Shown here: positions 7,496 through 35,430 of the stretch, in pieces
Position numbering within the stretch: position 1 is the stretch's first letter
Layout: each line of letters begins with the position of its first letter
Virus record (IMG/VR): IMGVR_UViG_3300032226_000829
DNA from: a virus
Lineage: Duplodnaviria; Caudoviricetes
Direction: 5' to 3' (one strand)
DNA length: 64,000 bases
Translations under genes and position numbers: made by a program
Notes under the pieces: generated by a model
The model's database searches: none
Seen by the model: the letters and a program-made list of their open reading frames with translations, nothing else
Told to the model about the DNA's origin: nothing

Positions 7496-7524
7496 TTGAC
7501 AACCACCCAGCACAGTGCTATAAT
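7496..7524 (+). promoter_or_regulatory. Consensus sigma70-type promoter
   Basis: TTGACA-N17-TATAAT. Confidence 0.8.
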
Positions 7525-23075: not shown

Positions 23076-23279
23076 ATGAATCAAGGTAAAGTTAAGTGGT
23101 ACAATGCCGCTAAAGGTTACGGTTTTATCACTCCAGACGATGGCAGCAAAGATGTGTTCGTACACGCATCTGCTCTTAGAAGTGCCCAGTTGGAAGTGAT
23201 CACAGAAGGTCAAGCAATCAGTTATGAATTGATTGAATCTCGTGGAAGAACCGCTGCTGGCAATCTCAGACTGATATAA
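23076..23279 (+). CDS. cspA: Cold-shock protein
   Basis: GKVKWYNAAKGYGFI, DVFVHASAL. Confidence 0.95.
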   Translation: MNQGKVKWYNAAKGYGFITPDDGSKDVFVHASALRSAQLEVITEGQAISYELIESRGRTAAGNLRLI

Positions 23280-23326
23280 TCCATACATAGATCCAAAATC
23301 TACCCGTGGCACAACAGAATCATCTA

Positions 23327-23356
23327 TTGACAATCATCACAGAATATGTTTAAATA
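23327..23356 (+). promoter_or_regulatory. tmRNA promoter
   Basis: TTGACA-N17-TTAAAT, overlapping a TAAATA motif. Confidence 0.6.
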
Positions 23357-23541
23357 CTGACGTAGGCGATGAAGTGATTGTAATAATCATATAGGACTCG
23401 GCTCGATGCCGACACCTCCACCAAATTCGCTCACGCGAAACATAATATGTTATGCTTCACGGGGGTGAAATGTTTCGACTAGTGATGAAAAGATCATGGA
23501 GTTTACCAGTGAGGGCTCTGTAAAGGCTCAACATTACAAAT

Positions 23542-23616
23542 GCTAACAAGCGTTTCGTATCAGAAGTAACAATCCCTGCTAACTTTTTAGTTGGCTCGGA
23601 ATTGATGGCAGCCTAA
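23542..23616 (+). other. tmRNA tag reading frame ANKRFVSEVTIPANFLVGSELMAA*
   Basis: Resume context acaaat-GCT-AAC; C-terminal AA degron followed by TAA. Confidence 0.8.
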
Positions 23617-23667
23617 AAACCTGCTACTTCGGAGAGTGATCACACTTGGCAACAGAACGTGATCAGT

Positions 23668-23687
23668 GGTGGGAGGCAACTCCCACC
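23668..23687 (+). terminator. GCAA-tetraloop hairpin closing the tmRNA coding piece
   Basis: GGTGGGAG-gcaa-CTCCCACC. Confidence 0.7.
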
Positions 23688-23774
23688 GTTAAATTATCCA
23701 CAAAACCCGCACAAAATAACAATTCTTAGAGCCTTGACAATGGATAATTAATAGTTTAACATTGTATTAACTTT

Positions 23775-24473
23775 ATGAATTTTATAACTTTTAAAACAAG
23801 AGCTAAAATTTGGTCATTCAGATTTTGGCGTTGGTGTAAACAGTACAAAAAGGAATTGAGCATTGCAGGTCTGATGCTGGCATCATTCTATTTGGGCACA
23901 TGGTATCCTAATAATAATGTGCAGAAACAAATCACCACTGGTCCCATAGAAGAATTACGCAAAACAGCCAAAAGTTTAGGCTTGGCAGAACCCATGATGA
24001 ACTATCACAATCAAAGCACATTTATTAGTGCTGTGAGCAAATGTATAGATTATGTGGAATTTGGTTTGCCCAGAGATCAGCACATACCCAAAGCCATCAT
24101 AATTGCCATGGCCATGATGGAATCAGACAATGGCAGCAGTAGGTTTGCATTGGAAGGCAACAATCTATTTGGAATAAGAACTTGGGATCCTAATCAACCT
24201 CAGATGAAAGCATACTATCAATTGAATGCCAAGTGGGGTCTTAAAAAATACAGAACCAAGTGTGCCGCAGTGCAAGACATGATGAACATATTGAACACCA
24301 AAGATGTACACAAAGATTTTAGATATGAAAGAAATCGTCAGATGAGTAAAAAGAATCCTGACGTGTTCAAAATAGTGGACAAGTTGGACAAGTGGGCCAC
24401 AAATCCTAATTATAGAGAAGGTATCAAACAAATAATTCAGGATAATTTGCAGAGTTATTTAGAAAATCCTTAA
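23775..24473 (+). CDS. Glucosaminidase (GH73/Bax-like) cell-wall hydrolase with N-terminal membrane anchor
   Basis: AMAMMESDNGSSRFALEGNNLFGIRT, WATNPNY; hydrophobic segment at residues ~27-42. Confidence 0.8.
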   Translation: MNFITFKTRAKIWSFRFWRWCKQYKKELSIAGLMLASFYLGTWYPNNNVQKQITTGPIEELRKTAKSLGLAEPMMNYHNQSTFISAVSKCIDYVEFGLPRDQHIPKAIIIAMAMMESDNGSSRFALEGNNLFGIRTWDPNQPQMKAYYQLNAKWGLKKYRTKCAAVQDMMNILNTKDVHKDFRYERNRQMSKKNPDVFKIVDKLDKWATNPNYREGIKQIIQDNLQSYLENP

Positions 24474-30898: not shown

Positions 30899-31201
30899 AT
30901 GAGCAAAACCAAAACCGATATAGTCCTAGACGAAAAAGTAGAACAGATAATATTAGAACCAGAAATGGTCAAAGTGATCATGTTGAATGATGATGTTACT
31001 CCAGTAGACTATGTGGTAGAACTATTGATAAAAATATTCAAACACACTCAAGACAGTGCCAAAGAAATCACACTTAAAATTCACACAGAAGGCAGCAGTG
31101 TGGTGGGTTCCTACAGTTATGAAATAGCTGAACAGAAAACCAAAGAAGCCATAGAAGATGCCAGAAGCAGAGGCTTTCCTCTACAAGTAAGAATGGAATA
31201 A
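30899..31201 (+). CDS. clpS: Clp protease adaptor ClpS
   Basis: KVIMLNDDVTPVDYVVELL, IH.EG..VVG.Y..EIAEQK, FPL. Confidence 0.92.
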   Translation: MSKTKTDIVLDEKVEQIILEPEMVKVIMLNDDVTPVDYVVELLIKIFKHTQDSAKEITLKIHTEGSSVVGSYSYEIAEQKTKEAIEDARSRGFPLQVRME

Positions 31202-31913: not shown

Positions 31914-32609
31914 ATGAGTTTCATTTGGGATACCTTGATTGCATGTCAGAATAATATCATCACAGAATTCAATTCACGCGGCAAAGAGATTCAAGAACCC
32001 GGCATGAGCAGATTCAATCAACCCGAAAATGGTTGGATCAATAGAGTGTGGGAAACTGAACACTGTCGTCGTTGTCACATAGACGTGGTGGATGCTAGAC
32101 AAAGCAAAGGTCTTTGGATGATGCATGTGTGTGTATTTCCACATTTGCACAACAATGGTCCTATCTATGGATTCGATGTGATTGCCGGAGAACACAAAAT
32201 GACCGGCGCATTTCATGACTTTTCACGCAGCTCAGGTGGTGATCAACATCCACTGATAGAATGGTATCACCAAGCAGTGGCAGAGTTCATTCCTTCTAAA
32301 AGAAGAAAACTACCAGAGTGGGCACTGAATATATTTTCAGGTAGCATGATTGCCGCAGGCAATGTGCAAACAGACGAAGAAGCCAACACCATTGTGAATC
32401 TTGCAGTGAACAACCTACAAGTGTATTTTGACAGCATAGGACAATATGCTCACACTGCCAAGGAAGCAGATACCATTGAGGCACAAAACTATTATTGTCA
32501 TAATCAGCAACAGAATCCACACACACCTAGAGTGATGAAAAGTTTAGGTTTGGCAGAAGCAGACGTAGAATTATTTTGCACAGACGCACTATTTCCAAAA
32601 ATAAAATAA
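31914..32609 (+). CDS. pcyX: Ferredoxin-dependent bilin reductase, PcyX/PcyA-like
   Basis: RRCHIDVVDAR..KGLWMMHVCVFP, PIYGFDVIAG, AFHDFS, NQQQNPHTPRVM. Confidence 0.85.
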   Translation: MSFIWDTLIACQNNIITEFNSRGKEIQEPGMSRFNQPENGWINRVWETEHCRRCHIDVVDARQSKGLWMMHVCVFPHLHNNGPIYGFDVIAGEHKMTGAFHDFSRSSGGDQHPLIEWYHQAVAEFIPSKRRKLPEWALNIFSGSMIAAGNVQTDEEANTIVNLAVNNLQVYFDSIGQYAHTAKEADTIEAQNYYCHNQQQNPHTPRVMKSLGLAEADVELFCTDALFPKIK

Positions 32610-34839: not shown

Positions 34840-35430
34840 ATGCCAGCATTGGTTCCCATAGTGATTGAACAAGAAGCCAGAGGCGAACGTTCCTACGACA
34901 TTTACAGCCGACTGCTCAAAGATAGATTGGTGATGTTGGATACAGAAGTATCTCCAGTGTCTTCCAGTCTTATTGTGAGTCAACTGCTATTTTTAGAAAG
35001 CGAAAATACCAAACCCATACATTTTTATATCAACTCACCAGGAGGATTGGTTACAGCAGGCATGGCAATCTACGATACCATGCAATATATCAAATCTCCA
35101 GTGTACACCTATGTGATTGGTCAGGCTTGCTCTATGGGCAGTCTATTGTCACAATCAGGTGAAGCAGGTCACAGATACATGTTGAAACATGCCAGACACA
35201 TGATACATCAACCATCAGGTGGTACTCAAGGTCAGGCCACAGACATACAAATTCATGCTCAAGAGATCCTTAAACTTAAAAAGGAACTCACTCAGATCTA
35301 TGTTAATCACAATTCCAAAGGCAAAACCTTTGAGCAATTGAGTGCTGACATGGAACGAGATAAATTCATGAACGCCCAAGAATCCTTTGAGTATGGATTG
35401 ATAGATAAAATTCTATCTAAAAAAGACTAA
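34840..35430 (+). CDS. clpP: ATP-dependent Clp protease proteolytic subunit
   Basis: [24 protein letters not shown] (Ser), MIHQP (His), MERD (Asp). Confidence 0.96.

Follow-up and report, generated by a model that had tools for sequence, protein, structure and literature searches.

The window, the 64,000-nt stretch of viral DNA analysed here, carries a circularly permuted tmRNA gene (ssrA) on the + strand at 23362–23687, identified with Rfam covariance models and by direct reading. Rfam cmscan found two matches above gathering score in the whole 64 kb, both on this stretch: RF04321 (tmRNA_permuted) at 23365–23616, with 81.1 bits, E = 6e-14 and the full model (1–213) aligned, against a gathering score of 47 bits; and RF01849 (alpha_tmRNA) at 23323–23667, with 65.3 bits and E = 1e-15, against 50 bits. 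RF01849 is the top scorer of its clan at the gene, and the other clan models score lower. The first-pass annotation had described a phage-borne, permuted two-piece tmRNA and had proposed the alpha_tmRNA model as a check; with both Rfam models above gathering and the anatomy complete and in order, that description is borne out. A more permissive Rfam scan of 23250–23800, with E up to 5, gave no further credible match and no riboswitch, the glutamine riboswitch included, and there are no ORFs of 60 aa or more between 23333 and 23775. The features of the locus are as follows.

23327–23355 (+): sigma-70-type promoter, TTGACA at 23327–32, 17-nt spacer, TTAAAT at 23350–55; from direct reading and a pattern scan
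23362–23423 (+): acceptor piece, 62 nt; from Rfam alignments, cofolding and the helix table
23362–67, 23374–79 and 23386–94 (+): 3′ strands of P2c, P2b and P2a in the acceptor piece, followed by GGAC
23398–23412 (+): T arm of the acceptor piece, UCGG-CUCGAUG-CCGA
23413–19 (+): acceptor 3′ strand CACCUCC in the acceptor piece, followed by ACCA at 23420–23
23424–23460 (+): intervening spacer, 37 nt, without an ORF; variable, with indels, and with a fold that is not significant
23461–23541 (+): 5′ part of the coding piece; from Rfam alignment, cofolding and pair comparison across three lineages
23461–67 (+): acceptor 5′ strand GGGGGUG in the coding piece
23468–78 (+): D-loop analogue of the coding piece, with a single G and UCGAC
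23479–86, 23492–97 and 23501–06 (+): 5′ strands of P2a, P2b and P2c in the coding piece
23513–16/23526–29 and 23519–23/23534–38 (+): pseudoknot PK1, stems S1 (GGGC/GCUC) and S2 (UGUAA/UUACA)
23542–23616 (+): tag frame, with resume codon GCU, 24 codons and stop codon UAA at 23614–16
23578–84/23589–95 (+): 7-bp hairpin within the tag frame; from pair comparison
23617–23687 (+): 3′ domain of the coding piece; from its helices and the alpha_tmRNA consensus
23637–43/23659–65 (+): helix B, enclosing the conserved loop CUUGGCAACAGAA
23668–75/23680–87 (+): terminal hairpin with a GCAA loop and no U tract after it

Direct reading confirmed the gene order given in the first-pass annotation, with an acceptor piece that ends in an encoded CCA at 23423, a 37-nt spacer (23424–60) and a coding piece that starts with GGGGGUG at 23461. 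The acceptor stem described there is likewise intact in the helix table: GGGGGUG pairs with CACCUCC over 7 bp (GC, GC, GU, GC, GC, UA, GC), followed by discriminator A within an unpaired ACCA, and the pairs are the same in all three lineages in which the gene was found. The third of them is G3.U70, the identity element for alanine. Cofolding of the two pieces yields the acceptor stem, the T arm and a P2 of 8+6+6 bp, about 20 bp in all, which starts just past the D-loop analogue. Minimum-free-energy folds of truncated pieces favour two local hairpins in place of P2a and P2b, because both strands of these helices are quasi-palindromic; we set the hairpins aside and retained the intermolecular P2 on the strength of the Rfam consensus and of covariation in P2c. 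PK1 can form as an H-type pseudoknot, with 3 nt separating its end from the resume codon GCU at 23542. From this codon the tag frame reads ANKRFVSEVTIPANFLVGSELMAA, 24 codons ending in LMAA. Downstream of the frame, the loop CUUGGCAACAGAA agrees with the alpha_tmRNA consensus in the Rfam alignment, and the 3′ motif CACUUGGCAACAGAA aligns to the RF01849 consensus with high posterior probability. The fold of the whole precursor beats 100 of 100 shuffles (z = -3.3). No U tract follows the terminal hairpin to mark the 3′ end of the gene.

Two mini-hairpins that had been pointed out in the spacer are present in the sequence, but they are weak, do not rise above chance and are not conserved. The spacer folds at -6.2 kcal/mol (z = -1.8), with 10 of 200 shuffles equally stable; the first mini-hairpin is broken in the viral contigs L214 and L203, the second has indels in the same two contigs, and the more distant contigs L210 and L244 have 33-nt spacers unrelated to that of the window. 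The spacer behaves as a discarded segment would.

The gene is present in nine viral contigs belonging to three lineages. A motif scan for CTCCACCA...GGGGNTGAAAT...TTCGAC recovered permuted tmRNAs of this general kind, with many different tags, from 97 viral contigs but matched only 19 of 185,579 bacterial species genomes. Six of the 97 are 96–98.5% identical to the window gene and L210 is 77% identical; L244 was added by a T-arm scan. RF04321 scores 84.3 bits in L210 and 80.1 bits in L244, and both pass the Rfam cut-offs. An earlier scan of viral contigs with 15 specified bases was discarded, its matches being mostly due to chance. With the gene as blastn query, the 50,697 phage records of INPHARED gave no match, and the nearest assembly record, G001, is without the tmRNA gene.

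Variable positions were counted over the seven close copies. They number 11 of 27 upstream, 0 of 6 in the -35 hexamer, 6 of 17 in the promoter spacer, 0 of 6 in the -10 hexamer, 1 of 62 in the acceptor piece, 4 of 37 plus indels in the intervening spacer, 7 of 227 in the coding piece and 18 of 33 downstream, so that in these copies the gene varies at 1.6–3% of positions versus 35–55% in its flanks. Both promoter hexamers are thus invariant around a variable spacer, and L210 and L244 have the identical TTGACA-17-TTAAAT promoter. The predicted transcript start, at about 23360–23362, falls on the first base of helix P2c.

Comparison of the three lineages revealed compensatory changes in several helices. 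P2c occurs in three variants, every one fully paired; PK1 S1 has a G-C to A-U exchange; the hairpin in the tag frame has A-U replaced by G-C or G-U; and P2a has one U-A to C-G exchange, with two mismatches in L210 and L244. Helix B is built from three unrelated stems in the window, L210 and L244, all around the same loop, and the terminal hairpin has another stem in L210 and is missing from L244. The tag is identical in the seven copies, with L214 differing at 2 nt, both synonymous. L210 and L244 have in common a 22-aa tag that ends in RLAA, is unlike that of the window and carries 2 synonymous differences. Within lineages, all four tag changes are synonymous third-position changes, and all that is kept of the tag from one lineage to another is its Ala start and its hydrophobic-Ala-Ala end. 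Such a pattern of conservation and tag change is what would be expected of a working tmRNA.

ARAGORN reported no tmRNA in the window, in keeping with the warning of the first-pass annotation that standard gene callers could miss the gene. The usual tRNA-like form has a T arm with a 5-bp stem and a 7-nt loop, and a D-loop with GG. In the window gene the T arm is 15 nt long versus 17 in the consensus, readable as 4 bp plus 7 nt or as 5 bp plus 5 nt. Its D-loop contains a single G, against at least two in every other copy; the UCGAC and GGAC motifs are both present. When ARAGORN was tried on 118 natural copies, it detected 79 of 85 with a 17-nt T arm, 7 of 14 with a 16-nt T arm and none of the nine with a 15-nt T arm, the clade to which the window belongs. 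The miss is probably explained by a T arm 2 nt short together with a single G in the D-loop. Assembly error is not the cause of the short arm, since it is identical in the nine viral contigs of three lineages and in the RNA-library contigs that cover it. The 16-nt T arms found in Mesorhizobium make the shortening a departure of degree. In the L121 group, which has the same T stem, the loop is UUCGAU and the D-loop has GG, and the window clade lacks one T-loop U and one D-loop G by comparison; with these, both partners of the G18-psi55 tertiary pair are gone. The reduced T arm and D-loop could impair elbow formation or binding of SmpB or EF-Tu. That the shortened elbow is an adaptation rather than drift, giving phage translation RNAs a private elbow geometry, seems to us distinctly unlikely; were it so, such an elbow might evade a host elbow-directed nuclease or modification enzyme, or suit a phage-encoded partner.

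The setting is that of a large phage. The window encodes class Ia ribonucleotide reductase (nrdAB), an ATP-dependent DNA ligase, clamp-loader subunits, a tail protein, a virion protein, an endolysin-like glucosaminidase, Hsp20, a 2OG-Fe(II) oxygenase, UvdE, SOD and QueD. Phage genes flank the tmRNA on both sides, and the gene does not lie on a host flank, since the distance to either window end is more than 20 kb. The ribonucleotide reductase genes are nearest those of Pelagibacter phage Mosig and of cyanomyophages. CheckV estimated related 40-kb contigs to be about 12% complete, which agrees with a genome of more than 300 kb. The order nrdB...NT5C-csp-tmRNA-glucosaminidase is kept in close relatives, in which the neighbouring proteins are 63–86% identical (NT5C 72–74%, another neighbour 63%).

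Genes for protein turnover and ribosome rescue were looked for in the same contigs. A ClpS adaptor gene at 30899–31201 (+) and a cellular-type ClpP gene at 34840–35430 (+) sit 7–11 kb downstream of the tmRNA. The ClpP assignment rests on PF00574 (245 bits) and NF001368 (286 bits, above cut-off), and the head-maturation (prohead) protease model falls below cut-off on the same protein. ClpP lies at the same distance in three close relatives and is not in the L244 and L210 contigs, which are fragments. No Clp ATPase was found among the ORFs scanned in the window. The first-pass annotation held that the window contains no smpB, and the search agrees: a profile HMM of four alphaproteobacterial SmpB proteins gave nothing better than E = 1 in a six-frame translation of the window, whereas the positive control reached E = 1.7e-31. 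The Pfam SmpB model likewise had no match in five related contigs, each about 12% of a genome.

The top rank of the alpha model within its clan is consistent with a host or ancestry among the Alphaproteobacteria, and to this extent the suggestion that a permuted ssrA points to the host stands. As a guide to the host it is a weak lead, for three reasons: phage Melnitz carries an alpha-type two-piece tmRNA and infects the OM43 clade, a gammaproteobacterial host (PMC9004378); the T-arm/D-loop signature is in none of 185,579 bacterial species genomes; and the nearest relatives in a limited tree are other viral copies. The 19 bacterial genomes with the looser motif are mainly Rickettsiales and Mesorhizobium, and none is close. 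Mis-binned phage contigs may account for three of these 19, which are MAGs with the labels Ulvibacter, Ignavibacteria and Planctomycetales. Residence in an alphaproteobacterial chromosome fails as an explanation of the locus, the neighbours being phage genes and bacterial genomes holding no near copy; the gene is alpha-like in form, not bacterial. A ferredoxin-dependent bilin reductase homologue (PF05996) at 31914–32609 (+) scores 83 bits on the PcyA model, far under its cut-off, and is PcyA/PcyX-like. It does not settle the host, since phages of cyanobacteria and phages of alphaproteobacteria both carry bilin reductase genes (PMC11480375).

Twenty public runs contain the stretch. Fourteen are lake or freshwater DNA runs with at least 95% of sampled words, four of which may be the source of the stretch itself, and six are metatranscriptome runs from four studies, with 45–72% of sampled words. 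The gene itself is in at least 10 independent lake metagenome studies. One RNA run was examined from each of four lake studies, and each contains one short contig inside 23374–23726, with 99% or 95–99% identity. These contigs bridge the spacer in all four runs and so represent the precursor form or DNA at best. They give weak support to transcription of the gene, as DNA carry-over is possible and the contigs show no ends. The glucosaminidase gene has no cover in the RNA-library contigs, a comparison of contigs only, in which absence proves nothing; csp is covered solely in run X15, by a divergent RNA-library contig.

Taken together, the gene anatomy, conservation, covariation and presence in RNA libraries lead us to favour, with a probability of roughly 80%, a functional ssrA of a lytic, T4-like giant freshwater phage, encoding an alpha-type two-piece tmRNA. 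None of the results speaks against the RNA acting in ribosome rescue with host or distantly encoded SmpB. Early in infection, host RNA polymerase would start at the sigma-70-type promoter and make a precursor of about 330 nt, and tRNA-processing enzymes would excise the 37-nt spacer, RNase P cleaving at G23461 and 3′ trimming stopping at the encoded CCA. The acceptor piece (62 nt) and the coding piece (about 227 nt) would then be held together by the 7-bp acceptor stem and the roughly 20 bp of P2, and host alanyl-tRNA synthetase would charge the RNA via G3.U70. The charged RNA would enter stalled ribosomes with SmpB which, being absent from the window, would come from the host or from elsewhere in the genome of more than 300 kb. 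Translation would move to the tag frame and append 24 residues ending in LMAA, the ribosome would be freed, and the product would be marked for ClpXP-type proteolysis, possibly by the phage ClpP (34840–35430). The likely benefit would be that ribosomes are kept available and amino acids recycled during host mRNA decay.

A different purpose for the same RNA would be to compete with or re-programme the host system, beating the host tmRNA to SmpB and stalled ribosomes and adding a phage-specific 24-aa tag that could alter the targets or the protease used, such as phage ClpP paired with host ClpX, or could slow quality control in the host. The tag fits such a role in two respects: it lacks the usual ANDN adaptor-binding start, unlike other viral and bacterial copies, and its body is wholly different between lineages, in which the Ala start and hydrophobic-AA end alone persist. 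The nearby cellular-type ClpP and ClpS, with ClpP also in three close relatives, point the same way, and a passage of PMC11915505 cites a report that the phage DS6A tmRNA, a tRNA domain alone, inhibits host tmRNA. The window gene, however, retains every element for complete trans-translation and keeps them under selection; a pure inhibitor would have no need of a conserved frame, PK1 or a stop codon, and the L244 and L210 contigs, though fragments, are without ClpP. We consider this alternative unlikely.

That the gene is instead a functionless passenger or decaying relic, a captured host ssrA or the remnant of an integration site, appears highly improbable. ssrA is a common integration target whose fragments are found in prophages (PMC9004378, PMC4383910), and a shortened T arm and D-loop in a gene that ARAGORN rejects could be taken as signs of decay. 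But the gene is full-length with its own conserved promoter, its low variability contrasts with that of its flanks, its helices carry compensatory changes and its tag has changed by synonymous substitution alone. The short T arm, being identical in nine contigs of three lineages, speaks for selection and not decay, and the gene lies far inside the window amid lytic-phage genes, with no near copy in bacterial genomes. Conservation, covariation and the synonymous tag changes largely refute the integration-site or relic reading.

Phage two-piece tmRNAs are already published and are common in aquatic phages. In the survey by Buchholz et al. (2022), 402 of 18,146 phage genomes carried tmRNA genes, and 53 of the 133 unique structures were two-piece, 50 of the 53 being from aquatic phages (PMC9004378); a 2025 tmRNA database holds 79 phage sequences. 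The closest counterparts are in Melnitz and Mosig. These too are T4-like aquatic myophages in which an early sigma-70 promoter precedes a permuted gene of the alpha type. The Mosig copy is similar in score (RF04321, 93.6 bits; RF01849, 67.6 bits) and has the same 3′ helix round a CUUGGNAACAGAA loop. The window differs in its 15-nt T arm and single D-loop G, where the Mosig T arm is the canonical 17 nt, in its 24-aa tag (about 9 in Mosig), in the distance of the tmRNA from nrdB (2.2 kb, versus about 20 kb in Mosig) and in belonging to a freshwater phage with a genome of more than 300 kb, whereas Melnitz and Mosig are marine. A glutamine riboswitch in the 3′ domain has been reported for Melnitz and Mosig as a common, not a defining, feature (PMC9004378). 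In the Mosig record (L243, tmRNA at 111558–111772), Rfam sees no glutamine riboswitch within 1.5 kb of the gene at E up to 0.1.

The two-piece tmRNA of Alphaproteobacteria, reportedly described in Caulobacter by Keiler, Shapiro and Williams in 2000, matches the window gene in gene order, encoded CCA, acceptor stem with G3.U70, P2 and PK1, and the 3′ UGGCAACAGAA motif is common to both. In contrast to the bacterial genes, the window copy is in a phage, has no nearby smpB, encodes a tag without an ANDN start and has a reduced T arm and D-loop. Huge phages have been reported with both tmRNA and SmpB (Al-Shayeb et al. 2020, PMC7162821) and are likewise giant phages with translation-rescue genes, but their tmRNAs were called by ARAGORN, which is blind to the window gene, and the part of the genome represented by the window is without SmpB. 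What is new here is a well-supported phage member whose tRNA-like domain is mildly unusual, whose tag is long and which has Clp genes close by. It extends the known phage two-piece tmRNAs by a lineage widespread in fresh water and opens no new kind of biology. ARAGORN-based surveys, such as those of the Melnitz and huge-phage papers, undercount such genes when the T arm is non-canonical. With a cellular-type ClpP and a ClpS encoded nearby, this phage would suit studies of the purpose of phage tmRNAs reasonably well.

Two further observations concern the surroundings of the gene. Directly upstream of the tmRNA, at 23076–23279 (+), lies the gene for a cold-shock-domain protein (CspA/CspE-like) which is 98.5–100% identical in close relatives, far above its neighbours, and which is not beside the tmRNA in L210. 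The window also has ten TTGAC(A/T)-N17/18-TATAAT-like promoters, all on the + strand, at 7496, 14193, 17368, 21551, 23327, 23734, 24781, 26267, 43458 and 61755. At seven of the ten, an ATG stands 6–7 nt past the -10 hexamer, which predicts leaderless early mRNAs.
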